A stretch of 64,000 nucleotides of DNA from Tubulanus polymorphus (taxonomy: Eukaryota > Animalia > Nemertea), in assembly GCF_964204645.1 (NCBI RefSeq), contig NC_134030.1:14198110-14262109 (forward strand), given 5' to 3'. A program made the translations under genes and the position numbers. Positions 1-33,741 of this stretch are shown here, piece by piece. How positions within the stretch are numbered: position 1 is the stretch's first letter; each line of letters starts with the position of its first letter. Under the pieces are notes generated by a model. It worked only from the letters and a program-made list of their open reading frames with translations. It did no database searches and was not told where the DNA came from.

Positions 1-1101
1 TTCCAGAACCATGTAATGAATTATCCTCTGTTGTTCTAAAATCTAACCATAATGCATATTTATTACCGGTATAATAATCAATTTGATTAATGTTACAATT
101 TTCAGATGATTTTACTTTTTCATTCATAAAATGTTTTCTAATTTCTGGCCATTGATCATTCTCATTCCTTGACAAAATATTTTATTTGCTATTCCTTCGA
201 TAGTTATTTCTACTTTTGTTATTTCAGTATTATAATAATTATCAACATTTATTGCACCATTAGTATATGTTGCAATGGTAAAAAATATTAATATACCTTT
301 AATAGATCTTCTTGGGAAGTTAATATTCTCATTAATTATTTCATCATTTGCATTAATAGTTACAGTTTTAAATTTATCAATATAATCATATAATAATGAA
401 AATCCTTGATTGTATTTAGTTTGAATTATACTTGAAATATTTTCATCAGTTACTGTATCATATTCTAAACATATATTCGATAATTTATAACTCATATCTT
501 TATTAACGCTAGATATTACAATTTCATTTACAGGAGCAAATGTTATTTCGAATATAACGTCTTCTTGAATTGCGTATTTATATAAAGGTGCATTGTTATT
601 TATCAATTCAAAGTCTAATGGAATTTTATATTTGCTTCCATATATACTTTTTATCAATTTATCTATAGAATTAGTTAATATTGCATTATATGCTTCTGAT
701 CTTAATTTATTTTGGTTTTCTGATTGGATTCCTTGAAATATCATATTATTTCTATTTTCTTTAGTTAACCATAAATCTTTATAATGCATAAATAAATTAT
801 AATCATCTAATGTGAAAACTGTTTCTGGACCAATCTTTATAGTTAATTTTTTTATCAAATATCTTCCAACATTATCAACAACATAATTATTATTAATACC
901 GATTACTTTTATATCGGCTGATAAATAAATACTATTTGGAACATAAAAAGTATTTTGTGTTAATCGAGGAATTCTAACATATAAAGTTTCATCAGGATTA
1001 ATGTTAGAAGGATTATGTGTAATTATATGATGTGATCTTTTTGCTTTAATAGCATTAGATATTCTATGATTCTTAGAAGGATTGATATAACTCCCACTCA
1101 T
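1..1101 (-). pseudogene. Putative double jelly-roll major capsid protein, frameshifted near 155; continues beyond the window
   Basis: The 325-aa ORF (ITHNPSNINP..LYVRIPRL, NVGRYLIKKLTIKIG, KIPLDFELI, ICLEYDTV, KVEITIEG) resembles the capsid family of invertebrate Polinton-like elements. After GMRM a shifted frame reads DQWPEIRKHFMNEK...KYALWLDFRTTEDNSLHGSG, open to base 1. Confidence 0.7.
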
Positions 1102-1121
1102 TTATTTAACAAAAAAATTAA

Positions 1122-2679
1122 TTATTTATTTTTTATCATGTTTACTAAACCAAAAATAATTGCACTTACAACTGTAATTAAAAATAAAATAATATGTTCA
1201 GCAGCAAAGTTAATAATGTTTCCTGCAGATTTCAATATAAAACCAACAATTGATGCAATAACTCCTGGCAATGCTGCAGCAGATTTCTCATTTGATTTGC
1301 TTGATAGTTCCCATAAATATTTTGCTAATTTCTTTAAACCATCGTGTTTATTTGGAGTAGGAGTAGATTTTAAAGCATTTGATATTGCTAAACCAATTGT
1401 TGTAAATAACATAGTTACAGCTGTTAGAATTGAAAGAATTGTTATTCCTTCTAATTTAAATAATAACTTTATTCTATCTTTCAATGATATTTCAGAATTT
1501 TAGTTTAATCAACAAATCTTTAAAAATAACTTTTTTTCTATTAATATTATAATCATATGATTTTAATAATAACTTAATTTCTTCTTTTTGTAATTCTATG
1601 TTATATTCTAAATCATCTTTTTCTTTTTCTAAATATGCATTTCTTTTTTTAAATTCGATTTCTTCAATAACTTTATTATCTCTATCTAATTTTAGTTGTT
1701 CTATTTCTTTATTTTTATCAGTTAATTCTTTTTCTAAAGTTCTAATTTTAATATCTCTTTTACTTTTTTCATGCGAAATTTTATCAGCTGATTCTTGCAT
1801 ACCTTTAATTTCTCTACGTGTTTGTTCAGGAAATTGTTTTAATTCTTCATCAGTTAAATCAAGTAATCCTTTTTCTAGTAAAGATTGTATTTGATTTATT
1901 CCAGTTTCAGCACCAGCACCAGATGTATCTGGTATACTATTCATCTCTTCTGAATCTCTTAATCTATCAATTTGTTTTTCAAATGTTAATTGTAATTGAC
2001 TTGAATCATTATCAATTTGTTGAATATCTCTTCTCGATGTTTCGGGCGTTGAAGATCTTAATTTATCTAATCGATCTCTATACTCTTCCATTTCTGTTTC
2101 TGAATTTGTATTGATTATTTTTAATAAGTCATCAATTCTTTCACTAAATTCTGTTATATTATCATCTCTTTCTTCTTGTGTAACATCAGTTATTTCATTA
2201 TTAATACTTATTATTTTAATTCTATCTGGTTCTAATTTTCTCAAAGTTGATTCCGCTAATATTTTATTTAGTCTTGTCTTTTGATTAGTGATATCAATAT
2301 AATAATCACCATCCAAATGATAATAATATTTACCTTTAAAAAGTTTTAAATTTTCTGCTAAAAGTTCAGCATCTCTATCACTTATATTATACCCAGATCT
2401 TTCAAATACAGGTTTGAATTTATAAATAATTTTATTATATTCTAAATCTTGTCTTGATAAACCTTGATTTAAATTTTCAGGAGGTATTCTCGATCTAGTT
2501 CTTCTATCAAATTCATCTGTTGATGGGGCTTTAGAACCACTATCTGCTAAATTAGAATTATATGCTGATTCATTACCATCATCGATATTAGTTTCTGCAT
2601 CATTATAATCATCATCAATATATCCTTCATTATAATTTCCCATGCCTTCCATTTCATAATCTTCTCCACCTTCTGCCAT
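1122..2679 (-). pseudogene. Viral coiled-coil protein with C-terminal multi-pass membrane domain; one gene split by a frameshift at ~1495-1505
   Basis: ORF 1492-2679 (acidic N-terminus, long heptad coiled coil) abuts ORF 1122-1484 in another frame. The latter has no ATG or promoter of its own (TTG start) and encodes hydrophobic helices (ALPGVIASIVGFILKSAG). Confidence 0.65.
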
Positions 2680-2694
2680 TTACATAATAAAAAA

Positions 2695-4005
2695 TTAAAA
2701 TTTAAAAAATAATATTCCTCCGATTACAATTCCTATACAAGTTAAAGCTAATTTAGTATTTTCATAGGATTTTTTATCATCATTTAGTTTAATTATATCA
2801 TGTTGAATATTATCAGTTTTTATATTTTCTGATGTATTGTAATCTTTTATTTTAGAATCATTATTTAATTTGATATTATTAGTTTTAGTTTCAGTTGATT
2901 GAATGTGTTTTTTATTTTTTTCACCTTCCAATAATTTTGGAGCAGTGATAATCTTTTTATTTATATCATTTAATCCAAATGAATTATTTATTGTTGCAGT
3001 TTTAATTAGATTATTATAACCAATTAAACCAAATCCCGTCTTTAATACTAAATCATTAGAAATAATAAATAGATTAGGGCCCATACAATAATTTAATCTA
3101 ATATGTGATTTATCTAAATAATTTTGATATCTTACAATGTTTTCTGGAATCGATCCATTTTTATCATTATGAATTGAATCTTCAAATAATACTTTGAATT
3201 GTTTCTGCGCATCGAATGAAGTGTTATCATTTCCAACTATTGGTGATCTTGTTTCAACTTGCGCACCTAAAATACATATCAAATGAGTTCTAATAGATTG
3301 ATTTATTCTTTGTATTCCAGCTATAGTAAAACCTTCACCATTTTCTAAAATGAAATTAACCTAACCATTATTATTATCAATTTTATAATTATGATAAGCC
3401 CCAATTCTATGCATATAATCAATTCTTTTTATTTCATACTCTTCACCAACACCTTGCAATTTACCATGCGCTCTAAAATCGGAATTAATATTTATATTAA
3501 ATTCATTACATATTTTATAAAACTTAGATAGATTAATATTATTATCCAATTCTTTAAAATATTAAGACCCGGGTATAGGACATTCTAATTCATTTAATAT
3601 TATTCTGATTTGAAAATATGTGTGAAATCTAAATATTGTGTGAATTAATTTTAAATCAGAACACTTCAAATTTTTATCTAAGTTATTTAAATGATCATTC
3701 CAACTTATTCCACATCCTGTTGTTGCACAATAAGCAGCAAAATTTAATTGATTCTGCCAATATTTCATATTAGATTTTACTTTATATATATATATATGGT
3801 ATTCATCTCGAGTAAAAGTAACTTCATATGTATTAAATATATTTTCCATTTTAGAAATAAAAAACTGTGATTCAGTAACATAAATTTCTAAATTAGTTAA
3901 TGAATTTAAAACTACATTTCTATATGTAATATTTTTCTTAAAATCTATTGCAGGAATATTATATTTAATTGATTTATTATATTGGAAAGCTTTTGGAAAC
4001 CCCAT
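2695..4005 (-). pseudogene. Conserved Polinton-like-virus protein (~436 codons) with C-terminal TM helix and two premature stops
   Basis: ORFs 3562-4005, 3361-3549 and 2695-3282 are in the same frame, separated by stops at 3562-3564 (TAA) and 3361-3363 (TAG, probably from TGG). Read-through gives WQNQLNFAAYCATTGCG...FRFHTYFQIR...G*VNFILENGEGFT...RINQSIRTHLICILGAQ...FDAQKQF. Confidence 0.75.
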
Positions 4006-4024
4006 TTATATAATTAAAAAATTA

Positions 4025-4456
4025 TTAATTAACTAATTCTTTTAATGATTTATCTTGTTCTTCAACTGTTATATGGCCATTTAAACTTATTATATAATCT
4101 AGTGTATTCTTTAATTTATTAATTTCTTTTATATTAGTTTTAATTTTTTCTTTATTACTTTTAATATTTAATTTTGAACTTATACCAGTTAAAACACTTG
4201 AACTTAATCCTAATACGCCAATTGATATAGCTAAAGGTGTTAATGGACTGAATATTGCTAGAAATGTTATTACAGAACTAATTGTAACCGAACCACTTAT
4301 AATCAAATAATATATAATTTTAGATTTTAAATATTTTTTCTTTTTAACTTTTAAGTCACTTTCAAATTCTAATATTTGTTTTTCTAAATATATTTTTAAT
4401 TTAGTTTTATTTATATCATGAGGAATAATATCAATATTATCAATTTTATCTTCCAT
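4025..4456 (-). CDS. Viral coiled-coil, two-TM-helix protein (143 aa)
   Basis: Intact ORF with TAAATG start; basic coiled-coil segments flank a ~45-aa hydrophobic hairpin. Confidence 0.7.
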   Translation of the reverse strand: MEDKIDNIDIIPHDINKTKLKIYLEKQILEFESDLKVKKKKYLKSKIIYYLIISGSVTISSVITFLAIFSPLTPLAISIGVLGLSSSVLTGISSKLNIKSNKEKIKTNIKEINKLKNTLDYIISLNGHITVEEQDKSLKELVN

Positions 4457-4492
4457 TTATTTAGAAACAAGAAAATTAATTTTAGAAAATTA

Positions 4493-5648
4493 TTTGACGC
4501 CTGCGAAAAAAATGTATAATTTCTGGGCTAAGCTAATGTGGAATTGCAAATTTGAAATCGAAGTTTTAAAAAAATTTGGGGAATGATGAGATTTGGCGAT
4601 TGGGTAGATGATACAGCGGGTCTTCGACTCTAGTAGTGGTTTAAATTTTTTTATTGAAAATTCTCAATAATTGATCGCGAACTTGCGACCGACTTCATTT
4701 ACTTATGCCTCTAAGCTAGTCTGCAACTTCATTGCCTCCATGGTTGAAGAACGAGCTCTTCTGATGTCTGCTTCATCATGACTTCGAGCATATCGTGTGG
4801 CCTAGCCAGCCGGCCCGGGCCACGGGTTTGGCTGTCACTCGATATCCTAGAGTCTTGAGTCTGGGTGGGTTGAAGTAGACATTGTCACTTAAAATAACAT
4901 GCTTATGTTGTTCTGTATGAATTACCCGTGTGTCATGTATGTTGTATTAATTTATTTTAAAATTTGTATTTATTGAATTTGGGAATTATATCCCGAAATT
5001 TCAATGTAATAAGGATCAATAAAGAATTGAATTGAATTGTCACCTAATACACATGCCATCAGAGGACGCGGAGCCGTATATGATAGCTATGCTATTATAA
5101 ATTGCTAATCTCACGAAACCTGCATACTCCTAATATCAAACATATTTTCTAAAACGTTTGAATATTGAAATTATATGTTTACACATTTTCATATTGACCG
5201 CTTGTAGCCGCTGATGAAATTCACGCCGACCCTACACACATCGTAGATAGCTTCGTCATTCCACCGGCATGCCCACGTCAGGGTCTGACTTTTATATCAG
5301 ACTTCCAAATCGTGTATACATCAGCCATTTAACCGAATAATCCGATTTACTTATCATTTCTATTTATGCCTGCCGCTTCTGATATAATCATACATCCTTT
5401 ACTATTACAATACGTCTGCTAATGATATTCAATGCAATATAACATTTCGACGTTCAAATATAGGTCATTATATAATCACAGGAAGCCATTCTACATCTAT
5501 GTCAATAATATTTTGCTAGATAGCTTATTTGTGTACACATAGACCTGTGACGTTTTGCACATCGATTTACGGCTGTCGTTTGTAAAATGACGCTGAATGG
5601 TTAACATTGTTGAGGTTTCATAATGGTAACGTTTTATAAGGCGTCAAA
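4493..5648. mobile_element. 1156-bp insertion into the viral array, probably a non-autonomous DNA transposon
   Basis: GC-richer and non-coding. 10-bp inverted termini TTTGACGCCT (4493-4502) / AGGCGTCAAA (5639-5648). Flanked by GAAAATTA (4485-4492) and AAAAATTA (5649-5656). Contains a LINE-like AATAAA(GAATT)n tail at ~5018-5039. Confidence 0.55.
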
Positions 5649-5656
5649 AAAAATTA

Positions 5657-6070
5657 CTAATTAGTAAATTTATATGCTACAAATATAACAGTTCCACCTA
5701 AAATCCATATTATTTCATATATCTGTTGTTTACTTGGGGTATAATAATCTGATATTGTAGGTTTATGTAGATGTAATTTTGCTTTATTTGTTACCGCGTT
5801 ATATAAACTCATTGCATCATCAACTGATTGAAAATCTCTATGTGAAATCTTCTGATCATATAATTCTTTGTTAATATAATCCATATAGTTTTGTCGTTTT
5901 TCTCTATATATTTCAGCTGCTTTATTGTATTTCTCTAATGCTAAGTTATATCTTTTTTGTTCTGTTAATGAACCATTTTTATCAATATGTTTAAATAAAT
6001 ATCCACCACCAGTAAATGCTAAAGCGTTAACAATTGCCGATCCTATAATAGTTATAATTGCAGAAGCCAT
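5657..6070 (-). CDS. Viral membrane protein (N- and C-terminal hydrophobic helices, central coiled coil; 137 aa)
   Basis: Intact ORF MASAIITIIGSAIVNALAFTGGGYLF...EQKRYNLALEKY with TAAATG start; resembles a small protein family of invertebrate Polinton-like elements. Confidence 0.75.
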   Translation of the reverse strand: MASAIITIIGSAIVNALAFTGGGYLFKHIDKNGSLTEQKRYNLALEKYNKAAEIYREKRQNYMDYINKELYDQKISHRDFQSVDDAMSLYNAVTNKAKLHLHKPTISDYYTPSKQQIYEIIWILGGTVIFVAYKFTN

Positions 6071-6094
6071 TTATTTAGTAAAATAATTACGCAT

Positions 6095-6316
6095 TTATAT
6101 GGGAGGAATATATTTTTGTTTTTCCAAATAATCAATAGTTAAATTAGATAAAGTAACTGCTAATGTTAATTTTAAAATATCATTTATATCAAATCTATCA
6201 ACATTAACACTTCCCATTTTAAATACTTTTTTTAATACCATTGAATAACCAACAGTTCCAACTGATAGTAATGCTCCATTATATAATCCAGTTATTATCC
6301 ACTTATTATCACTCAT
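6095..6316 (-). CDS. Small hydrophobic viral protein (73 aa)
   Basis: Intact ORF with TAAATG start, two hydrophobic segments, C-terminal DYLEKQKYIP. Confidence 0.7.
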   Translation of the reverse strand: MSDNKWIITGLYNGALLSVGTVGYSMVLKKVFKMGSVNVDRFDINDILKLTLAVTLSNLTIDYLEKQKYIPPI

Positions 6317-6673
6317 TTATTTATCAAAAAAATTACTATCATCAAAATATTTAGTTATCTTATTTATGATTAATTCAACATTTATTTCATTACTAGTTTC
6401 ATTTGTATATATTTCATTTATTATTTTTTTAATATCATCGATGATAAAATCTTCATCTAATTCATAAAATCTTAAAGATTCTCTAATTAAATTAGTAATC
6501 TTATCTACATTTAAAGTTTCTTTATCTATTGTTGTTTCATACTGAAATGTCGTTTCATTAGAAAATGTAATATTTTTGATATGTGTAATTACATCATTAA
6601 CGTTAAATTTCATTTCTTTCTCATGTTTAAAATCAAACCCAAAACATATACTCGGCCCAACAGTTATATTCAT
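6317..6673 (-). CDS. Viral hypothetical protein (118 aa)
   Basis: Intact ORF with TAAATG start; its stop codon abuts the next gene's ATG (TAA-ATG). Confidence 0.6.
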   Translation of the reverse strand: MNITVGPSICFGFDFKHEKEMKFNVNDVITHIKNITFSNETTFQYETTIDKETLNVDKITNLIRESLRFYELDEDFIIDDIKKIINEIYTNETSNEINVELIINKITKYFDDSNFFDK

Positions 6674-6693
6674 TTATATAGTGAAAAAAATTA
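6671..6693 (-). promoter_or_regulatory. Representative viral late-type promoter TAATTTTTTTCACTATATAAATG; copies upstream of ATGs at 1101, 2679, 4005, 4456, 6070, 6316, 6673 and 31784(+)
   Basis: A TAATT-led T-run lies 18-23 nt before an ATG embedded in TAAATG at each gene; TAAATG alone occurs at 7446. Confidence 0.7.
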
Positions 6694-7446
6694 CTCTTTA
6701 CATCTTATAACTAATTCATATATCACAGGAAAGTTATTCAAATCAATTAAATAACCATTATGATTTCTTATTTCTAATTTAAAATTATTGAAATGTGGAA
6801 TACAAGGTTTGAAATCACATTCAGTTAAATTATAATTTATTTGAGTTCCAAATTGTTAAACATTTTTTAGCGGTAAAATATTTAGTATACTAGAACTACA
6901 AATCGTTTCTTTAGTTGCTTCGAAAGTTTTTGTAGGCTCGATTAAATTGCAATAAATATAAAAGTGTGTAAAAGGTATTATATTTGAGCTGCCTTCTGCG
7001 TTTCCAGTAACTGTAAGCGGTTTAATTCCTAACATTTTAGCCAGTGGTTTGTTTACCATAAATTTATGTTGTTCATTAGATATCTTTATTCTTATTTTAT
7101 TAGTACTATCAATTTTATTAAATTTAATTTCAAATACAGAAGTGCCCCCGATTTTCAACCGAGCTCTTCTATTAATTTCCTGCGCTAATGATTCTAAATT
7201 ATATAATCCTGGTTTTAAAAATATATGAAACCATTTATCTTTATTTCTCATATAAATCATAAACCCTCTATGTTCAAAAGTTTTATCCGATATATTATAA
7301 AAAGAATTACATAAACTTATATTTACTAATTTTAAATCTACACAATTCTTAAATTCTCTATCTAATTGTACTAGTAAATTATGAGATTTATAATTAGTAA
7401 GTTTTCTTGAATCAACAAATATTCTGTATTCTTTTAATTCTACCAT
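6691..7446 (-). pseudogene. Putative minor capsid (penton, single jelly-roll) protein with one premature stop at 6856-6858
   Basis: Penton-like motifs IFVDSR, LVNISLCNSFYNI, LKPGLYNLESL and FYIYCNLI. In-frame continuation past the stop reads QFGTQINY...FKLEIRNHNGYLIDLNNFPVIYELVIR to the stop at 6691. Confidence 0.7.
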
Positions 7447-7463
7447 TTATTTTACATATTTTC

Positions 7464-7817
7464 TTATTCGAAATCTATTTCATGGTGCCCCTTTTCATTC
7501 TTACCTTTGTATACGAAATAGAAATCTCCAGAACATAATTCTTCTAAGTCTTCACTTGATAATCTATGAAATCTATCCGGTAAATATGTTCTGAATTTAT
7601 ACGTATTTCCTTTTAATCCTTCATATTCTAAGTGTATAACTAATTTATCTCCATAGTTATTAGTAACTGTAACAATATCTGTAATTAGATATTTCTTATG
7701 GATTGTTAATTCTGTTAACTTTTTGAATTTATAATCTACAGATTTTACATTTGTGATATCTTTAATTCTATCTAGAAATAATTTGTTGTTCTCACTGTGC
7801 GCTTGTTTACTCTCCAT
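7464..7817 (-). CDS. Small Polinton-associated protein, possibly OB-fold/ssDNA-binding (117 aa)
   Basis: Pattern FKKLTEL...KKYLITDI..VTNNYGDKLVIHLE...YLPDRF...FVYKG; lies immediately downstream of polB. The function is inferred. Confidence 0.6.
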   Translation of the reverse strand: MESKQAHSENNKLFLDRIKDITNVKSVDYKFKKLTELTIHKKYLITDIVTVTNNYGDKLVIHLEYEGLKGNTYKFRTYLPDRFHRLSSEDLEELCSGDFYFVYKGKNEKGHHEIDFE

Positions 7818-7846
7818 TTTAATAACATATTTTTATTAAAATTTGA

Positions 7847-8305
7847 TTAACACGTTAGAATTCTTTTCATTATCTCGTTCTCTTTTGTTTCTTCTCTTTT
7901 AAATTTTAAGTATTCATCTAAATTACAACCATAAGCATCTGTATGAATTCCATCATCTAAAATATATCTTTTATCATCAAATGGGTTTAGACTTATCTTT
8001 TCAATTTCTTCAATAAACATTTCATAATCTTCAGATCTTAAACATCTCATCTTATGTTTTCTAACTTCTTCATTGAATATACAATTGATGTAATCTTTGA
8101 AATGAATATTCTTTTCTACTACACTTTTGGTTATTCCTTTTAACTTTTTAGCTTCATGTTCTTTAGTTTTATATGAATACATTTTAGATCTAATACCAAT
8201 GAATTCAATCATTTCTTCACCACCTAATTCATCTTTGAATTTACCGGGAACTTTTTTATTATCATTGCTAAACAATTCATGATCTTTAGGATAATTACTG
8301 AAATA
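7847..8305 (-). pseudogene. C-terminal fragment of protein-primed family B DNA polymerase (Polinton-type pPolB), 5'-truncated
   Basis: FSNYPKDHELFSNDNKKVPGKFKDE, EFIGIRSKMYSY, KKLKGITK and SLNPFDDKRYI...GIHT.AYG are characteristic of the Maverick/Polinton PolB C-terminus. Similarity ends at ~8305. Confidence 0.92.
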
Positions 8306-9886
8306 AAAAATGATGTTTTAATGTTTTTAAATCATCAGTTATGTTATCAGTTTTTATCTTTAATATGTAACTGTCGGTATCAAAATATAATATTTCTATA
8401 TGTTTTTCTCCAAAAAGTGGTTGTAATACATTATAATAGAATTCATACATTAGTGTATGAATTCTACAGAGTGTATACAGAGTGTGCTATAATAGCCTGT
8501 ACTCTACAATATACGAAAATATCCACACTTATGTTCTATGGAAACTTTAAGTTGTCAAATTCACTAGTTAAAAGCTTCAAACTTCGACAAAATCTCACCA
8601 GAATGCACAGTCCGGATGTTACGGCTCTTCCTTATGCGATTATTCCTAGGAAAACCAAATGTTCTTGTTCCCAAAAAGAAGTTTTTAGCTCCCGTGCCAA
8701 TGACACGACTCTACAGTCCGCCATGTTCAAAAAACATTTCTAAACCTGATGCTATTAAACCAAAAATGAATGTAACGAATACTTTGTAACTGCACTTAAG
8801 TTTTTGAACTTAATTATGCGGGTAAAGCTACAAAAATGACGTAATCGTGTATACAAGTAAGAAAGGTGGTAGCAAAATGGACTCAAACGAGCACGCCACC
8901 CGATGTTCCTCGAAAATCGAGTTAGTTCAAAAAGTTAACGTCATTATGGTAGCGGGTTTAAGGTATGGTCTGAGTATTTTGATCATGTAAATTATGACAG
9001 GCTAGTGCTTTTCACCGAATTAATATGTCAGTCTTGATTATGTTTCAATTTGGACTTATAAAGGGAAACTCAATCGCTCATCACGATTCCTTGAATAAAG
9101 ACAGATTACCTGGTAATATTCCAATTTATACCGACGCCGAGTGGCCAGGCTTGCAACTTAATAGGGGAATTGCAAACCACGCAATACCCCAACAAAAAAA
9201 CAACAAAAGTAAGTTCACGCCATGGATAAGGTGTATATATTTTATGTACAGATAGTTTATTGAGTTACAGAATATGATCATCACTCGATCGATTATTTTT
9301 GAAGTGAGGAAAAAGACGACAGGAACAATCTACAGTTTAAGGGAATTAACTCATATGCCGTCCCGTGCTGCTAACTATTGATAAAACTTGAAAGTAACAT
9401 CTGATTTTTAATTTGAATTGACTGCGTGACTTTTCAAACACGAACAATGAGTTTCCTGGCCATTTCGTGATGTCTTATTACTTCTGGCGAAAATCGAGTA
9501 CTTTCCAGCGATGAATTATGTAAGTCTTGAAATCATAGGTCGAGCCAGTCGATTTACTCTGCCAAAAGCTAACGAATTTGCCTCCATTCACTCGATTATA
9601 GACGTTCTTGTCATTTGATAAGCTGTTTTAAAGGGCTTGATAGAATAAAGTACTATTTTATATATGATTACGGTTTACGTGAACTTGCTTGAAATTTGTT
9701 AACAAAAAGTTTCCTTGTACTTCTCGAAAGTTTGATTACAATTGTTGTTCTTCAGTTGTGTCTGAAACAAAGCATAATCCACCAAACGTTTACGTGAGGC
9801 TGTATGTACATCCTTCCCAAGTGGCGCTGATCTGTATTGTCGGGAATTATTCCTACCATAAGTCGGCGTAGTACTAGTTTCGGGGA

Positions 9887-9914
9887 CTAGTGAAACGATG
9901 GCCGTCTGCGACGT
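9887..9914 (-). CDS. luqin: Possible luqin terminal coding exon (KRRRRPSFH*)
   Basis: If the donor AA|GTAAAT at 10335 is used, acceptor ttcctcacttcag at 9915 gives an in-phase basic tail and stop. Confidence 0.45.
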
Positions 9915-10331
9915 CTGAAGTGAGGAATACAACGGTAAAACAACAATCACCATCAATAAGAAAGCAATTACCTAATTAAGTAGCGCATTTTTGCTAATAT
10001 CGAAACCACCACATGATGATATTGAGCATGTAGTTTTAAAGATTTTGAATTCCTGTAAAACAACATTTACATATCTTGATTTTCTATGCTGATTTTTAAC
10101 TACATCTGTTTTCATAGATGAAATCGTTTTTTTACATCCTATGATTACCTCGTGCTACCAGCTAGACCACCAGATGGCGTACGTTTCTCTAGGAAATTCA
10201 GTTAATTTTCAATTAAACATTCATTCGGATTCTTCGCCTCCCCCTCATAAGAGATTTCACAATAAGCGTTCAGCAAATGTAGGATTCATTTCATTAGAAA
10301 GGTAATAGGGAAATAAATGAATTGAAGATAT

Positions 10332-10444
10332 TTACTTGACACACTTATATCTGCCTGTTGTATCGTCCCGGACACATATGCTATCTTTTGTAGCTATTAC
10401 TTGTGCTCTATCGCTAATACTTTTGTCTTTTTCCGTGTCATTAT
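10332..10444 (-). CDS. luqin: Luqin precursor, coding exon 2 (C-terminal two-cysteine domain)
   Basis: Acceptor tcttttcag at 10445. In phase 1 it reads DNDTEKDKSISDRAQVIATKDSICVRDDTTGRYKCVK*, containing the C-x10-C motif of luqin precursors. Confidence 0.85.
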
Positions 10445-12510
10445 CTGAAAAGAATATTCGTTATATTTGAATATAACGTTTGAAAGCTAGGCGTAAAGAG
10501 TAATGCAGAATCTCTTTTCCTGTATAGAAATAACTCCGAGACGAAGGAAAAATCATGAAATAAGAATCACCCCTTTGCGTATAAGTGATCGTCTAGGGAT
10601 AGATTGCGCATCTGCTATTGATTCAAAACAGACTAATTGAATAATTGATAATAACGTGCGATCATTAATTACATCAGAGTACAGATTGTTCAGGAGACGA
10701 GAATCGGTAAGCAGGTGTTTGTCTTACAGATAATTGGCTACAAACTTATGTTTCCCTTCGTTATCTATCGGTAATTAGCACGTTTTCTGTTGTGAGAGTG
10801 GCCGATTAATCCTTGTACACGTTGTTCGCTCGAAATCTACCGACAATTTACGGAATTTGCCTATAAAGGAGCGTTCGCGATAGTCTGCGTGAAGTTTATC
10901 TGCTTTCATTTAATCATCAAAGCAATGGTAAACATGGTCACAGGGTTCTTTAGATTTGCACGGTTCATCACAATTCTGGATTAAAATTGTAATAACGCTT
11001 TCGCCTGAGAAATTTTTTGCCGCGAATGTCCACGATCAAAGATAACTGCCCATTGAGTATACGACGATCACCGGCATTTAACAAACATGCACGAGTCACC
11101 CGATCCTTAAAACCTCGAGCCTTAATTATCTAATAGCAACACGTTTTTAGTGTGGCGAATAGGCTTAGGGATTATCCTCGTTTGATATGGAAAATGTATT
11201 ATCTAAACCGTGGAATACGAGAGTTGTTTTTTAGACAGTCTATCGTATGAAACCGTGTCTTTTGCCCACGAGTAGAAAATGTGTACAAGGTGTGAGATAA
11301 AATGCTTTCGAGCATCAGTAGAGACCTCGCATGAAGTTGGTATGCGGGAGTAGAATAAAACACACGATCTCCGTTATGCGAGTAGAATGCGTGTGGTGTC
11401 TCTTAAACTGGGCGTCTCTGTCAATTTAGGAAGACGATTAGGTCTATTACCTCTATTAAGTGTAAATTTATTAGCGATATTGAAACGATCAGTTTACTTT
11501 CATTCTTCGGTGATCAGTCCGGGACCAATTTACCGCTGGTGTAACCAAGCGTATTATTGCGCACGTTGTTCGTAACCGTGTTTAATAGTGACAGGGGTGC
11601 GGTAAAAGTAAGATGGATCACCAGCTCAATTCACAATATCAGCATAATACAATCTGATCATGTTTTACACTCGTCTAAAAACTTCAGGTAGCTCCATCTT
11701 TTAATATAGTCAAGCCGGATCGCGATGTGCCGAATTTGACGCATGGCGTATCGGTACTGTAGAAAACCGTTAATTCATTCAATAAAGCATAATAGGCTTT
11801 ATCATTACATATTTTTAGTGAAGCGGTTCGAATAATTCTCACTTTCGGGTAGGTTTCCATTCATTTGTTTGAATTAAGTCGTATCAAGATAATCTCAAAG
11901 TCTGATTGATTGATTTTTTGACTGGCATTTGCAGCTTCTGATGGACATCCCTACTGTCATGATTGTATTATTTCAATTTGAAATTCGTGGATTTCTTGGC
12001 ACGGCAAACAGGCACACATATAGAGTTGCGATTTTAATATAGGGTCTAATCGTTTTAAAACCCCACTGATAATGAATATCGTAACAATTGGTCCCATTTA
12101 AGTCGAATTTCACTTATCTAGTACAAAAATCTTTTTCCCACAGTTTTCTGGACATAACGATGGAACATGCACAAACATGACACATTGTTGACGCCGTTAC
12201 ATTGGACATCAAATGGCAATGAACGGTCACTTTTTTCATCAGTGTCCAGCTTACAGTGCCCCTCCAGTTGCACAATATGACACGCGTTTGTGACCTCTTG
12301 GACCTTCCACTTGGGACCAGTTTGAATGGATTCTTAGGATTCACTGTAACCTAAGATTTCTGATGCACACTCAAGGAATCAGTTACAAGTGGTGAAACCG
12401 ATGTCTGACGTATTACAGTCAAACCCCGTCATAACGACAACGGGTAGCGATTTAGAGCAAATCCCAAGCGGCTCCATCTGTCAAACGACGACTCGTGTCA
12501 ATTAACTCAC

Positions 12511-12661
12511 CTATCTCATCACTTAAATAATCGGGCTCTTCATCGGGATCTAATCGTTTTCCAAATCTGCCTTGGGGTCGCCACTGCTGTTCACTTTCTG
12601 TTACCAATATGAGAAGTATAAACACGGTTGCCAGGGCGTACAAATATCCAATCGGTTTCAT
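12511..12661 (-). CDS. luqin: Luqin neuropeptide precursor, coding exon 1 (signal peptide + QQWRPQGRF-GKR)
   Basis: MKPIGYLYALATVFILLILVTESEQQWRPQGRFGKR: signal peptide, luqin-type WRPQGRFamide and amidation/cleavage site. Upstream acceptor ttttacacag; phase-1 donor G|GTGAGT at 12510. Confidence 0.92.
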
Positions 12662-17405: not shown

Positions 17406-18636
17406 TGTGCGAGTGTGCGGCTGCGCGCGTGCGTGCGTGTGTGGCTGAGACCGATGCAGCGAAGTGAACTCGTGGACGTGAGGCTTATCTGTTTGACCAG
17501 TTTGACTAAACGTACATAAATCACGTTTTTACGCCATGTGACGCTAAATTTCAGCAACGAATCTCACATCATCGCTATCGTCATGTCCGCATATTTTAAT
17601 TAGAACTCGGCACGCAGACAAGTCACATCCGGGAATGTACCAGTATCAGTTAATAGGTTACGTGACTTTTCTGATGCTTAAAACATCTGTAATGGTTAAC
17701 ACGAAAATCACACCCGTCATCAAAAACTCGTCACCAAATCCTATTACTGGAGTCATAATTGAAAATGAAATTCGTCTGACGAAACGGCCATCAATTTTTA
17801 ATGGTGTCCATTCAGCTCTTGTTGATTCGGTCGATGTGCCAAAGTGGGAATATCGGGTAGAGCTTGTAATAAAATATTGTATCGCATTCAGTCGATAGAA
17901 AGCATTGATTAACAGTAAGTGTTTATTTCATTGGGAGTGTGTTCGCGTGTAAGCGTGTGTGTAGGAGTCACCCTGCGCTGATAACGTTCCCATACATACC
18001 CCACTGTGAATGTAGCCCACCGACTCTCAGATTAGAATGCCTCATACTGGATTCGCTTTTAAATTGCATGTTTCCTGTTTACCAAAAGGTCCATTTGAGC
18101 GTCGGTGGGCCGATTATACTCAGGCCTTCAACACTGTTTCAATTTGGGTGATTCAGAATCCAGTTGGACAGTTGTGAGGTTAGATCTGACACTGGATCCT
18201 CTATAGCAGTTGGTCTAATCTAACTCAATTAAAGTGGTGGTGTTCAATATACTAGTTTTGAACATGAAAGTGTGGTAGAGTAAGTCTACAAAGGTTATTT
18301 GGGCGTACCAGGTAGATTTGGAACTAGGTGCGTACCGTGGCTACAGTGAATGGCAGATAATATGATGTACATATGGGTGGTAGCGAGAAAATTTCAGACG
18401 AGGCCATCATATTATACGCTCGCAGAATCACAGAGAATTACCTTAAATCGGTGGTAATTTCCGGGGATTTTGTGATAGAAACATACACTCTGTGGAATCA
18501 TCTATTCTTAGAGAATTAATCAAATAAATATAGAGAATTAATCAAATAAATATAGGAAACTATACAATACCATATATGGTAGACTGTATATTTATGGTAA
18601 TTTGGTTGATTAGAATCATACATGGTACAATCCCCC

Positions 18637-18768
18637 GGTGGTTGTGGTGGTGGTGGTGGTGGTGGTGGTGGTGGTTATAGTGGTGGTGGTTATAGTGGTA
18701 GTGGTGGTAGTGGTGGTGGTGGTAGTGGTGGTGGCGGTGGCGGCGGCGGCGGCGGTGGTGGTGGTGGT
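18637..18768. repeat. (GGT/GGC)n microsatellite
   Basis: Directly visible trinucleotide run. Confidence 0.95.
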
Positions 18769-19069
18769 TTGTTCCTTAACCAGTGGTTAAATAATTTACC
18801 CACTGGTTAGCCTATTTTTTATTTACCCAGCCTCACTCTGAAATTGGTCACTCTCATGATGAAAAGACAATTAAAAAGCCAATTTTACAGAAAAAGATTG
18901 CAATGCCTGGTTGTAAGGTTTAAATTCTAGCGTGACTTTTATCTATGGCTCCTCGCCATATATAATGACTAAACGAGTTATTACGAATGACTAAATTGTC
19001 CTCGCAATGCTATATGTATAGATCACTTCCCTGGAATAACGGCTCAAAAAACAAAACGGTGTTCGTTCG

Positions 19070-19211
<142 letters not shown>

Positions 19212-24060: not shown

Positions 24061-25411
24061 GTGGCATGTAGGGTTACCCGCAGACAATTGGAAACGATCT
24101 CTCAAGCTAATTTCTAAATCACATTGGCACACGATCAGAGAAGTTTTCTGCGTTTTTTTTCTAATCATCATATGCCTATTGTAATTATGCGAAAGGTGCG
24201 GGGCCCATTAAAATTTTGCCAATTTCGTGCATTGAGAAAAGACAAATTAATCGTGACGTCACGATTAATTTGTCTCTTTGCACGAAATTGGCAACGCCAC
24301 CTATCCTTTTTCCTTGGATTCCTGTTTAAGACATTCTGTATGTTCATGTTCAAGTGTGTGTGTATTACAGGTAGTGTGTGAGATGACCCAGTATTGTATA
24401 CATTTGCACCCAAATGGCAGCAATTTTTAACGAATATTTAAATTGCAACAATAATTGTTCACGAAATGTCTTCAATCATTCACATGGTTATATCAAAATT
24501 TTAAAAGAATAATTTGTACAATTCATATAAATCCAGAAAAGGAAGAGGTCGACGTGGACGTATATAATGATACAAAACACTGGCAACAATGTACCTATAT
24601 TTCTGAATGCCATTATGATAATTTATCAACTGTGAAAATAGAAATATGTGATACCGATCACGCGTGTTGATTTTTGCTCGAGTTTGAGATCTTATCGTGT
24701 ACTGCACTGTTTGATTTTGAGTAGTCATCGATTTGCACTGGGAAATAGAATGAATCAACTGTTACACAATCATGCTGCGATATTATCTCCCGAACATACC
24801 AAATAGCTAAACAAATAACATTTCAACTCAAATATTTCACTTTCCACCATGTGGGATTAATTCATTCTGAATTGATGGGCAGTTCGATGTTGGAATAACT
24901 GATCAAGTAAAGAGAAAGGCTTTCCCAAACTTTGTGAAATCCACCACAGACTTGAATAATAGAGCAGCACCGACGAGGAAGGATCTTATCATTGCTTCTA
25001 CACTACGTGTTGTGAGATATACGTTGTATATTAGTATGGTGCCGAATCCATAGATCAAGCGTATCATCATTCTTGTTATGATCTTATTCAATAGTTAGCT
25101 TACCCACATACCATTGAAAATTGTTATTTCCGGTAAACACTGAGCTGGGTTTGAAAAATTAATAACATATGCGCGAATTTTCCGAACACTCACTGACTAT
25201 ACTTGCTATTCATGTGACATTGCATCACATGGGCTTTACAATGAATAACACACTATGCACTGTACACACAAAATCAGTGTAAGTTTTTCCTAATCGATGC
25301 CGACTGAATTCATGATTAAGCATTGGAATTATCTCTATTTTCATCATAACTGTAATCATGTAAAAAAAATCAAGATATTACACAATTTTTTACCTAAAAT
25401 CAGTTTTATAG

Positions 25412-25572
<161 letters not shown>

Positions 25573-29462: not shown

Positions 29463-30689
29463 GAGTGACTAAGCCTAAGATTTATAAGTCACTTTAAGAA
29501 ATAATAACAAATATAGCACGAATACGCATAAAATGAATGTTTCGGCAGTTAGTTACATTTTGGATTTAAAAGAATTTTTTGACCATCCAGCAATTGATTG
29601 AAATGTTGAAAAGTAAAATTTGGTGACTACACATAAATAGTATGATTTGGAACTGTTTGTCAAGGTTTGTCAACATAATAGAATCATATAATGTTTGTAA
29701 AGTGTCGTATGATACTTTCATTTTCATGGCCAGCTGGTCATTAAAATCCGTGAATTCCGATGTTGAATTAATTAGCAAATCTGGGTTGGTTCCGCGACAT
29801 TTTCTAGCAATTCTATACGGATAAATGTCCAACCGGGGCATGTACGTTAACTATCAATGTTGCTTTTTCAAATTGGATATTTTTACGTTAGTGCCGTATC
29901 TGATATGCCAAAAAGGGCTGTCCACAAAAGACGTCCACATAGAATTTCGACCCCCTTCCCCATGTCCATCGAACAAAAAGCCTATTAGGGACATCAGACA
30001 TCCAGTCGTGCAAAAGATTTTTTTTTCATTCACTTAATCATTTGTTGTAAACCCGGGACTACATTTGTAATTCTATGAATCATCTTGAAAACATGGAAAT
30101 AGAAAATGTTTACATCTTACATATATTCAATTTTGAATTGGCGAATTCATGTACAAAATCGCTGAGATTGTTAATATTCTTAATTTTTAATATGCTAGGT
30201 CAAGCAAAAATAGGACCAATGTTATAGATAATTGAATTTGCTGGCCAAACGGACAGCATGCATTTTTTAGAATTATTTATGGATGTCGTTTAGTATCAGA
30301 AGTTCTTTTTCAAACAACATTACGGAATTGAAGAAACGGATCTATAAGGATAAATACGATACGTTATGAATAACAAGATAAAGATGTAAAACGCGTACAC
30401 AACGAGACACTTTTTTACATATAGATTTAATTTACCCGTGTCATGACAGTTTTTCGTCAGTAAATAGGTTGTATTTTCGAAGGGTCGAGTGAGTAAAAAA
30501 TAAAAATAAATTCTCGCACGCTCGAATTTATTTTTATTTTTCACTCACGCACCCCTTCAACCTTTGGCCTGAACCAACACTTTCCTATCTACTCTTATAA
30601 TTTCATGTTTTAAACGTGAAAGTAAAAACTGTTAGCATAACAATCTAGAAAAATAAGATCAAATATAGATTTCGAATAATAAAAAATCA

Positions 30690-30945
30690 ATTTTCAATAT
30701 AGAAAGTCTGAGTAAAGTGTGAGTGAAATAATTCATATTTAAAACAGTGAATATTTATATTTATATGTGTTAAATTCTTATTTTCAAACATAAAAAGTGT
30801 GAGTAAAGTGTGAGTGAAATAATTTATATTTAAAACAGTGAATATTTATATTTATATGTGTTAAATTCTTATTTTTAAACATATAAAATGTGAGTAAGGT
30901 GTGAGTGAAATAATTTATATCTAAAACAGTGAATATTTATATTTT
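30690..30945. repeat. 91-bp subterminal tandem repeat (~2.7 copies)
   Basis: GAGTAA(A/G)GTGTGAGTGAAATAATT recurs at 30710, 30801 and 30892. Confidence 0.95.
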
Positions 30946-30946
30946 A

Positions 30947-31612
30947 ATGAGTTTTGATAAAAGTTTTGTTATAAAAATTAAGAAAGAAGAAGAACCTGAA
31001 TTCAAAATCGAAATAAAAGAAACCAATAAATTATTTTCACAGTTTAACATTAAAATTTATATCTCAGCAACAAACTTAGTGTATGAGAGACAATATAAAA
31101 TTGATAATATTACTGGAATTAATCAAATATTATTAAATGTAACATATTTGATTACTGAACTAATTGACACTTTTGATTATGGCGCTAAAAATCCTAAAAT
31201 ATTCAATACAGTTTTAAATTGTAAAGGTAATTTAGATGAAAACATAATAAATATACTTCAAACTCCTTTTAATGAAAGAGATAGTGATTAAATACTTTCT
31301 AAAGGTTGCAATGATTTGATTAACGTAAGAATTGAAAAAAGACAATTATATTATTTCAATTTTGATAATAAACAAATTATCTATAATGAAAATTCATCAA
31401 ATATTGGAATTCAATGTGAATCAGTTAATAATAATTCTTATAAAGATATCGGAATTCAATGTTATTTAGATGATGAATTTAGAAAGTTTAATACTAATGA
31501 GAAAGTGTATTGTGATTGTGGAGGTAAATATTTAAGATCACATAAATCAAAACATTATCAAACAGTTAAACATATCGAATATGAACAGAATAATAAATAT
31601 ATACTGAAATAA
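30947..31612 (+). pseudogene. Element protein with C-terminal C2H2-like zinc finger; one premature stop at 31289-31291
   Basis: ORFs 30929-31291 and 31316-31612 are in the same frame with 8 sense codons between them. The C-terminus EKVYCDCGGKYLRSHKSKHYQTVKH is a Zn-finger type common in Polintons and large DNA viruses. Confidence 0.65.
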
Positions 31613-31783
31613 GATTAAGCTGTATGTTTCAAATAAAAAGTAGTTAAAGCATTGAGAAATTAATTAATGAATAACTGTTAGGTAGTAAGTTTAATTGTTA
31701 TTTGATTTGAAACATATAAAAGTTTAATATTTCTAAAATATTAAATATTTATCAATTTATTAATTTTTTTCTTAAATAAATAA

Positions 31784-32005
31784 ATGTATGATTTCAACAT
31801 TCCAACCGGAAGTAGTGATTTGAAACATTATTTAGTTGCTGGAGGTTTAATATTGGCTGCGCTTTACTTTTACTATGAGAATATTAGTAAAGATCTAATG
31901 GATGAAAATATGAAATTGAGTAAAAAGTTAAAGAAGTTAAATGGAAACAATCACAGAAAAAATAACAATAAAAAAGTTAATGTAGAAAATGATTTAGAGG
32001 ATTAA
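31784..32005 (+). CDS. Small single-TM protein (73 aa)
   Basis: Preceded by TAATTTTTTTCTTAAATAAATAAATG; TM segment YLVAGGLILAALYFYY followed by a basic coiled coil. Confidence 0.65.
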   Translation: MYDFNIPTGSSDLKHYLVAGGLILAALYFYYENISKDLMDENMKLSKKLKKLNGNNHRKNNNKKVNVENDLED

Positions 32006-32046
32006 AACAGCATCTTTAATTTATTTTATATATTTTAACTACAAAA

Positions 32047-32352
32047 ATGAGTGAGAGTAAGGTTTTAGAAATATTACATCTAATATATAAAAATCAACAG
32101 AATATTAAATCAATTATTATGCTTACAGCATTAGTTTCATTTTCATTTTGTAGTATAAAACAGTTGTTAGAATTCTATGATAATTGCAAAATTAGATACG
32201 CTGAATTAAAAGATAATATCAATTATCTATCAGATAGGATTAATAATATTAAGTGTTGTGAAATATGTAATAAAAGATATAAAAATGAGAAATCATTAAA
32301 AACTCAGAGATATATTCATGAGCTTAATAATAAACTGTATAATTCAAATTAA
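32047..32352 (+). CDS. Small protein with hydrophobic segment and degenerate C2H2 zinc finger (101 aa)
   Basis: CEICNKRYKNEKSLKTQRYIH, with the first His replaced by Gln. Confidence 0.55.
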   Translation: MSESKVLEILHLIYKNQQNIKSIIMLTALVSFSFCSIKQLLEFYDNCKIRYAELKDNINYLSDRINNIKCCEICNKRYKNEKSLKTQRYIHELNNKLYNSN

Positions 32353-33741
32353 GTTTGAAAATAAAAAAGAATAATCTTTTTATAGAAATATTGTATAATT
32401 TATAATTGTATGAATGGTACGAGTATACGAATGATACGAATGGTACGAGTCTTCCAATTCGTCCACTCGTCCACTCATACACATTCTAAATTCTATAATA
32501 TTTCAAATAATTATTTTATTATAGAGTAATACAAGAGTGATACTAAGTTATTCAAGGTAAATTCTCGCACGCTCGAATTTATTTGTATTTTTTACTCACT
32601 AACCCCTTCAACCTTTGACCTGAACCAACACTTTCCTATTTACTTTCGTCAATTATAGCACCCATTTATAGTACGGACACGTTCAATATCTTGTTCACCG
32701 ATAAAAATCTTGGTATATCCAACAAAGGTTTTACCAAATATATAAAAGATTTACTTATATTGATTGATTAAGGGCAGAGCTGAGCAACCTTAAGTTCAGT
32801 ATGGACAACTCGAGATTGGGGGCTATGAGGAAAATATATAGGCGTGTGGATGTTTAATCACATCGATAATTTTCTTGACTATTTTCGCAGAAATCCTATG
32901 AATCCCAATACCTCTATGTTTGAAGAGAATTTTTGACTATATCATAAAATTCTTATTTGTTGGAAAAGCGTAGAAGTTCTCATAGTTGTTCGTCCTAAGT
33001 CATTGTTACGGTGGTTTATATAAAAGCTGTGATCAAATTTGCTAAGTGATGTCCAACATCAACAAAAAAGGAATTGAACACATTTGCGATGTTGAAATTA
33101 CCACTAACAGTTGAGTTATTTAACTTAGAACAACTTGGTTATTTTTCTTTAACAAAGAAACTTCCAATAACTGTTTATAGAATGATCCACGAGGCTTTTT
33201 TATTATTCTTGAAACGAAATAACTAAGTATCGTGATAATCTTTGGTATGGTAGTACCGTATAATAGTTTTAAATAGCAGAATAATAACCGCTTGCATTCT
33301 AGATAACGGGTCTTGAAAGCAATTATTGAATTATTCGCCCATTTTGATTATATAAGCGATGTTTACATTCATTAGAGTTTAACAAGGGTTAGCTTATTGG
33401 TTTTTGCATTCGAGCTTTTAATAAAAGGAAAAACATGCTCTAAATGAGTAATTAGAAATAACAATAAAGCATGCGACCTTTGTGGGTCATGATCATTAAA
33501 GCCGACCAATCTCATTCTATTAAGCTTCTATATGCTTCACTTAAAACTTTTTTACTTTTTATCTTATCATGATTATCCTCTATGCAATACAATCAGATAA
33601 AGTAAATGAATTGGCATTATTTTGTCCCTTTCAATTCAGATAAATTGTATCTTTTTTTTAAATCAGGGTATGAATGTTTAGGCCAGCTGTAGGCTGAGCC
33701 AATTACTATACGAATGGAGCAAATTTAAATGACATGGTTTC

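Follow-up and report, generated by a model that had tools for sequence, protein, structure and literature searches.

A compact promoter-like signal, a T at position -12 followed by TAAATG over the start codon, is common to one clade of Mavericks/Polintons that encode an integrase and a protein-primed DNA polymerase B (pPolB). It stands before eight consecutive genes (the T at -12 before seven of them) of a decayed Maverick/Polinton on the minus strand, positions 1 to ~8460, of a 64,000-nucleotide stretch of the nemertean Tubulanus polymorphus (contig NC_134030.1, positions 14,198,110 to 14,262,109; hereafter the window). Eight consecutive starts with the two-part signal of poxvirus late genes at the same spacing suggest that the lineage likely multiplies with an RNA polymerase borrowed from a poxvirus-like virus that infects the same cell. 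The reading we favour, and consider reasonably probable from the comparisons below, is that a pox-type cytoplasmic virus, co-infecting the cell, supplies the late transcription machinery that reads the motif, and that the clade consists of virophage-like parasites that would rest in animal genomes between infections.

A promoter-like signal common to one Maverick/Polinton clade

An earlier note on this DNA had reported eight minus-strand genes starting TAAATG, and all eight strings it quoted are present at the starts it named (1101, 2679, 4005, 4456, 6070, 6316, 6673 and 7446). Its spacing of mostly 19 nt is also borne out: the distance from TAATT to ATG is 19 nt at four of seven starts and 18, 20 and 22 nt at the others, the start at 7446 having no TAATT, as in the note's own quotation. 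At 6316 the motif does lie inside upstream coding sequence, with the T-run in the last codons of open reading frame (ORF) 6317-6673 and the TAA of TAAATG as its stop. The next gene upstream (start 7817) has the variant TAAAATG, and its orthologue in the metagenome locus L001 has TAAATG. The claim that the motif precedes every structural gene was too narrow: the eight starts stand, but only the major capsid protein (MCP) is shown to be structural, and in relatives the motif also precedes integrase, ATPase, deoxynucleoside kinase and zinc-finger genes. It is therefore not a structural-gene signal.

The enrichment over AT-matched shuffles on which the earlier note had staked its proposal holds for the spacing-constrained motif but is marginal for the bare word. 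TAATTN{9,14}TAAATG occurs nine times in the whole window against 2.03 expected (0/100 shuffles), and T-rich sequence followed by TAAATG occurs eight times in 1-8450 against 2.4 expected, a count reached by 2 of 300 shuffles. TAAATG alone is found 24 times in 1-8450, where the dinucleotide-shuffle mean is 17.5 and 22 of 300 shuffles reach 24. Eight of these 24 sites open an ORF of more than 18 codons, and they are exactly the eight gene starts; the signal is therefore positional. Outside the element only two of 86 ORFs (at least 50 aa) start TAAATG, one of them in a second mobile element described below.

The signal is restricted to one side of the capsid phylogeny. The 325-aa capsid ORF of the window found 87 homologues, and the metagenome loci fetched (L numbers) are the best 80 of 144. 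In a quick, midpoint-rooted IQ-TREE phylogeny of 56 MCPs, 18 of the 19 rows on the window's side belong to the motif group, and a sister clade of 37 rows lacks the motif; since the tree is midpoint-rooted, gain and loss cannot be ordered. TAAATG stands at 61 of 78 conserved-family gene starts in the window's MCP clade versus 2 of 292 in the sister clade, a count that keeps near-duplicate loci and leaves out L015 (0/3), L065 (0/3), L067 (0/4, two TAAAAATG variants) and L055 (1/2). AT-rich sister loci (<38% GC) have it at 0 of 41 starts, clade members of 34-44% GC retain it, and TAA precedes 47 of 1040 out-of-frame internal ATGs used as a control.

Across 75 aligned clade starts, an A-rich stretch at -18 to -16 is followed by a T-run peaking at -12 (92%); the T at -12 is present at 69 of the 75 starts versus 35 of 116 non-start TAAATG sites. 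Eight of nine real head-to-head gene pairs carry TAAATG on both strands, seven of them with 19-30 nt between the ATGs (five distinct pairs once near-duplicates are collapsed). A purine occupies -3 at 194 of 261 sister-clade starts versus 13 of 75 in the motif clade. T at -3 is a poor context for translation initiation.

The sister clade has an upstream word of its own, TTGAA, at 56 of 261 starts versus 3 of 75 in the motif clade, often with TTCAA near the ATG of the opposite gene. It was seen upstream of genes in L017, L018, L024, L029, L032, L033, L053 and L056, and may be the promoter or initiator of that clade.

Likeness to poxvirus promoters and the machinery that may read the signal

In poxvirus late promoters, according to published descriptions, TAAAT(G) spans the start codon and a T ~10 nt upstream is conserved (PMC11980589), or the order is a T core, 5-7 bp and TAAAT(G/A) (PMC5294985); slippage at TAAAT yields 5' poly(A) leaders (PMC6211774), and TAAATG occurs at many genes of salmon gill poxvirus (PMC4542343). 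Both parts are found here, TAAATG over the start codon at all eight named starts and 61 of 78 clade starts, and the conserved T in a T-run at seven of eight window starts and 69 of 75 clade starts. Moreover, the T lies ~10 nt before the first A, as in vaccinia and other poxvirus late (and intermediate) promoters, A-rich variants occur further upstream, and G is favoured at +4 in both (0.72 vs 0.70). The motif is more uniform here than in poxviruses (T at -12 in 92% vs 62%) and, unlike theirs, it lies in a Polinton for which no RNA polymerase was detected and on nearly all genes, including the integrase.

We compared the clade with 36 poxvirus loci, poxvirus identity having been checked on one (Pox_Rap94, E=0). 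Their 289 unique TAAATG upstream regions, which are orthologues of ~14 genes and therefore not independent, have a T peak at -13/-12. The T profiles of clade and poxviruses correlate at 0.74 with no shift, at 0.64 with a shift of +1 and at no more than 0.46 elsewhere. With poxvirus genes named by order and size and expression classes taken from PMC11980589, early genes start TAAATG in 7 of 181 cases and most post-replicative genes do start so, the T at -13/-12 being strongest in L3L, L5R, H4L, J1R and H3L. Splitting late from intermediate promoter classes by gene family gave no clean separation. Coding strands of the clade avoid the early terminator TTTTTNT (z -3.8, the sister clade having -1.7), an effect confounded by general avoidance of T-runs (z -6.2 and -4.9). 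In all, the likeness to poxvirus late promoters is stronger than the earlier note had shown, through the T at -12 in register, the restriction to one clade, the back-to-back use on both strands and the anti-Kozak T at -3.

Dependence on a helper virus, which the earlier note had also proposed, remains the best explanation, and no helper sequence was found. The mechanism would run as follows. Transcription would start on AAA and slip, giving a 5' poly(A) leader and hence an A at -3 of the mRNA. The helper's polymerase, late factors and capping enzyme would express all genes of the element at once from promoters of 20-30 bp. The element's own pPolB would then replicate it and its ATPase and capsid would package it in the helper's factory, and the integrase would insert it in the nucleus, returning it to the genome.

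Several points weigh against this reading. L015, on the same side of the MCP tree as the window, lacks the motif (0/3), and the pPolB start is not observable, the frame in L023 being open to the contig edge. None of 120 poxvirus proteins gave a tblastn match in the clade loci or the window. The lack of any match to an RNA polymerase subunit, TBP or TFIIB among 50 clade ORFs speaks for a helper, but the loci, being incomplete, might hide a small factor of the element's own, and many of their ORFs are without a family. The loci, like the poxvirus orthologues, are related, so that the counts are not independent. The deoxynucleoside kinase of L001, followed in search of a pox-like contig, gave instead a non-pox locus whose genes do not start TAAATG, and unnamed proteins. 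A motif scan of viral contigs was unspecific (~3400 stretches) and was not used.

A further such point comes from 71 virus loci centred on the RNA polymerase gene, and it bears on a rival in which the mechanism is the same and the helper is another: the late machinery of a non-poxvirus nucleocytovirus (asfu-, ego- or pitho/iridovirus-like, for example) with the T(-12)/TAAATG layout. In an unclassified clade of these viruses (L248, L261, L293, L309, L313 and two stretches of bin G002), TAA precedes 15 of 68 starts (8.5% expected) and 12 of the 15 have T at -12. Because this lineage has a weaker version of the signal, the 'pox-like' helper of the earlier note stands as a match to poxviruses as a class, and not as a narrowing to Poxviridae; and no poxvirus of molluscs or annelids was found in the literature searched. 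Nevertheless, we regard another helper as unlikely. The commonest start context of the unclassified clade is AAA (21/68), and the median share of TAAATG across the 71 loci is 0 (67/811 overall) versus a poxvirus median of 0.51, so that giant viruses in general do not share the signal. Moreover, the published late motifs of African swine fever virus and pacmanvirus (TATATA) and of Cafeteria roenbergensis virus (CroV; TCTA) differ. Modest use of TAAATG and T(-12) was seen in this unclassified lineage across L248, L261, L293, L309, L313, L359 and L360, and L261 and L248 have a short ORF (~930-970 aa) encoding the largest subunit of RNA polymerase.

The element could also be autonomous in the nucleus, host RNA polymerase II, maybe with a TBP-like factor encoded by the element, reading an AT-rich box (TATAAA or TAAATA) to give nearly leaderless mRNAs, and the likeness to poxviruses being convergent or left by a former helper. 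The TATA box of RNA polymerase II lies ~30 nt upstream of the start site. Here box and ATG overlap, and 19-30 nt are enough for two opposed units. The sister clade shares the core genes and starts them in ordinary contexts with a purine at -3, and neither TBP nor TFIIB was matched in the 50 clade ORFs. Although several clade ORFs are without a family and transcriptomes of coral hosts show expression of polintovirus genes (PMC11131425), we judge nuclear autonomy to be distinctly improbable. Finally, there might be no promoter at all, TAAATG being a by-product of AT richness, of stop-start translational coupling or of the upstream gene's AATAAA polyadenylation signal. The element is indeed AT-rich (23-25% GC), TAAATG alone is marginally above shuffles, AATAAA occurs in 30 of 79 starts and 6316 is a true stop-start junction. 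However, AT richness is at odds with the 0/41 in equally AT-rich sister loci and with the motif in members of 34-44% GC; the TAA is the upstream stop at only 3 of 79 starts; and 49 of 79 starts have no AATAAA, while between head-to-head genes no transcript arrives from upstream that would need an end. None of the three accounts for the fixed T at -12. An origin without a promoter is thus already largely refuted, and we give it very little weight.

If the late machinery of a pox-type virus does read the motif, a broader picture can be drawn, which we offer tentatively and hold to be doubtful. A widespread clade of animal-integrating Polintons would be provirophages of an undiscovered poxvirus lineage of spiralian invertebrates, silent in the germ line and switched on by poxvirus-late promoters only in infected cells. 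They might serve as an antiviral system passed on by inheritance, in which a SLATT-like membrane protein is controlled by the same switch. Another element of this genome, 2 kb long, high-copy and with a hairpin, would exploit that helper as well. An antiviral benefit of the element is speculation, and the SLATT-like gene may be taken as only a lead towards it; SLATT proteins in polisuviruses have been presented as possible abortive-infection effectors (10.64898/2026.10.13.758929).

Related systems and significance

Animal Mavericks/Polintons are generally assumed to use host nuclear transcription. The sister clade fits this assumption, and the window's clade does not. Like 'adintoviruses' and coral polintoviruses, the window's clade combines pPolB, an rve-chromo integrase, an A32 ATPase and a double-jelly-roll MCP with integration in an animal genome (PMC10120064, PMC11131425); no protease was detected in it.

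The closest parallels in mechanism are provirophages. Mavirus and EMALE04 of Cafeteria burkhardae are likewise integrating elements with a giant virus's late promoter, the type of promoter differing between related element types; the promoter match predicts reactivation by CroV, and the integrase served with polB as a marker gene (PMC10945749). By contrast, the host here is an animal, the motif is pox-type instead of TCTA, no protease was found, and both helper and protection are putative. Promoter mimicry, established for mavirus/EMALE04 with CroV, has also been proposed for a pacmanvirus transpoviron (PMC11788076).

Polinton-like viruses (PLVs) occur in entomopoxvirus occlusion bodies (PMC11296320). 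AHEV_PLV1/2, CBEV_PLV1 and Ca_PLV1 resemble the window element in being Polinton-like elements proposed to hyperparasitise poxviruses, one of them integrated in a beetle genome; they differ in having their own cysteine protease, no rve integrase and insect hosts (PMC11296320). The words 'promoter' and 'motif' do not occur in the main text of that paper, and its supplements could bear on novelty. The yeast cytoplasmic linear plasmids pGKL1/2 share a protein-primed linear form and a poxvirus-like TAAAN initiator giving 5' poly(A) leaders, but bring an RNA polymerase and a capping enzyme of their own (PMC6211774), neither of which was found in the loci of the window's clade.

No report of a TAAAT(G) late-promoter motif in Polintons was found in the literature searched, which lay largely outside subscription journals. 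Word searches did not find 'promoter' in 10.64898/2026.10.13.758929, 10.64898/2026.06.19.733378, PMC11131425, PMC10120064 and 10.1101/2024.03.23.586382. What appears new is that promoter mimicry of the virophage type, already known, would here be pox-type and in a clade of animal Polintons. A clade-specific, in-register, pox-type promoter makes possible a cheap and direct test of the way in which animal Mavericks/Polintons are expressed and of their need for a helper. The favoured reading would extend provirophage biology from protists to animals. It predicts a pox-type virus in spiralians bearing the luqin neuropeptide WRPQGRF, hosts for which no such virus was found in the literature searched, and promoter signatures could allow the identity of helpers to be read from animal genomes.

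Gene content of the element and other features of the window

Gene content and collinear relatives identify the window element as Maverick/Polinton-type. The MCP gene (1-1101, minus strand) comprises ORF 124-1101 with a frame break near 155, its homology continuing past the window edge, and is 75% identical to the MCP of L001 (P0002). The structure model of P0002 (pLDDT 89) is a double jelly roll, and Foldseek matched it to iridovirus and Paramecium bursaria chlorella virus 1 capsids at E~1e-15, ranked above mavirus and Sputnik. In view of this ranking and of the lack of a protease match, we do not class the element in Lavidaviridae/Virophaviricetes. L001 is collinear with the window and beyond it encodes an rve-chromo integrase, an A32 ATPase (Pox_A32, E 4.6e-11) and a deoxynucleoside kinase; rve and chromo domains are also present in L023. 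Neither the integrase, which synteny would put beyond position 1, nor the ATPase, expected beyond the window edge, is within the window. The L001 kinase (PF01712; 10340-10981, minus strand) has a TAAATG start. Deoxynucleoside kinase genes are typical of large DNA viruses. An adenovirus-type cysteine protease was not matched among the scanned ORFs of the clade loci, themselves incomplete. No terminal inverted repeats or target-site duplication were seen in 1-12000, one end of the element lying off the window and the other being truncated.

Many MCP relatives of 37% identity (P0056-P0083) are on contigs as long as 5.4 Mb and so occur in multiple copies in some eukaryote assembly. A search of viral contigs found no MCP relatives and a pPolB scan was likewise empty, and a search of genome contigs for relatives gave two short, distant loci.

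The window copy is a decayed relic, with breaks in five genes, and is therefore unable to make particles alone. All of its genes lie on the minus strand, as do their promoter-like elements. The MCP promoter-like element (1099-1120; a T-run with T at -12 plus TAAATG) is followed upstream by the gene of a coiled-coil protein with a hydrophobic C-terminus (family 2; 1122-2679), split by a frame break near 1500 into ORFs 1492-2679 and 1122-1412; it has a tblastn match to a 485-aa L001 protein and no Pfam match. Its promoter-like element (2677-2697) has T at -12 and TAAATG, as does that (4003-4024) of a conserved ~440-aa protein with a C-terminal hydrophobic tail (family 3; 2695-4005; 66% to L001), which has in-frame stops at 3564 and 3363. 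The family-3 protein (model pLDDT 76) gave no significant fold match in BFVD or PDB and no Atlas match. The weakly SLATT-like gene encodes a 143-aa protein with two transmembrane segments (4025-4456; Pfam SLATT_fungal, E 0.004), and its L001 orthologue (L001 2541-2975) matches NCBIfam SLATT_4 at E 3.8e-5, below the cut-off; its promoter-like element (4454-4478) is the sole one of the eight with G, not T, at -12. Next comes a ~1.15-kb non-coding insertion (4495-5646; 37% GC). Its terminal inverted repeats measure 8 bp, and it is probably a DNA transposon of the non-autonomous kind; the flanking genes are ~100 nt apart in L001.

Beyond the insertion lie a 137-aa protein with hydrophobic ends that is conserved in both clades (family 5; 5657-6070) and a 73-aa hydrophobic protein with 90% identity to L001 (family 7; 6095-6316). 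The promoter-like element of the former (6068-6089) has T at -12 and TAAATG; that of the latter (6314-6335) falls within the 3' end of the 118-aa ORF 6317-6673, whose match to L001 is confined to the N-terminus and which has its own element with T at -12 and TAAATG at 6671-6693. The gene at 6697-7446 is a probable minor capsid (penton-like) gene and a candidate for the single-jelly-roll capsid protein; it is 44% identical to a 254-aa L001 protein, with a weak DUF5901 match only (E 4e-4) and an in-frame stop at 6858. Its promoter variant (7444-7466) is rich in A and has both T at -12 and TAAATG. The 117-aa ORF with the TAAAATG start occupies 7464-7817. Finally, a truncated and broken C-terminal remnant of pPolB (7847-8456; frame break near 8300) has tblastn matches to the pPolB of L007, L019 and L024, with no homology found upstream of ~8460; PF03175 is present in L023 and L024.

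The second mobile element, 2.1 kb and AT-rich (30479-32644), has an 80-nt hairpin on the left, a direct repeat of 87 bp at each end, a set of three 91-bp tandem repeats and short ORFs, one of which (30947-31291) has no homologue found. Its 73-aa ORF at 31784 starts with a T-run, T at -12 and TAAATG, and divergent copies in X2/X3 (one sample) keep the T-run and TAAATG at this site. Over most of its length the summed contig depth in run X1 ranges from thousands to tens of thousands, versus ~35 in the flanks, so the element is a high-copy family. It may be a satellite of the transpoviron type with the same helper.

Four kilobases from the Polinton, at 12452-12661 on the minus strand, is a luqin-type neuropeptide exon with a signal peptide and QWRPQGRF-G-KR; WRPQGRF-amide is on record for molluscs, annelids, a brachiopod and a nemertean (PMC7041311), a spread that indicates a spiralian host. 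The window also holds long TA microsatellites at ~18990-19210 and ~25400-25570 and a glycine-rich ORF at 18622-18810.

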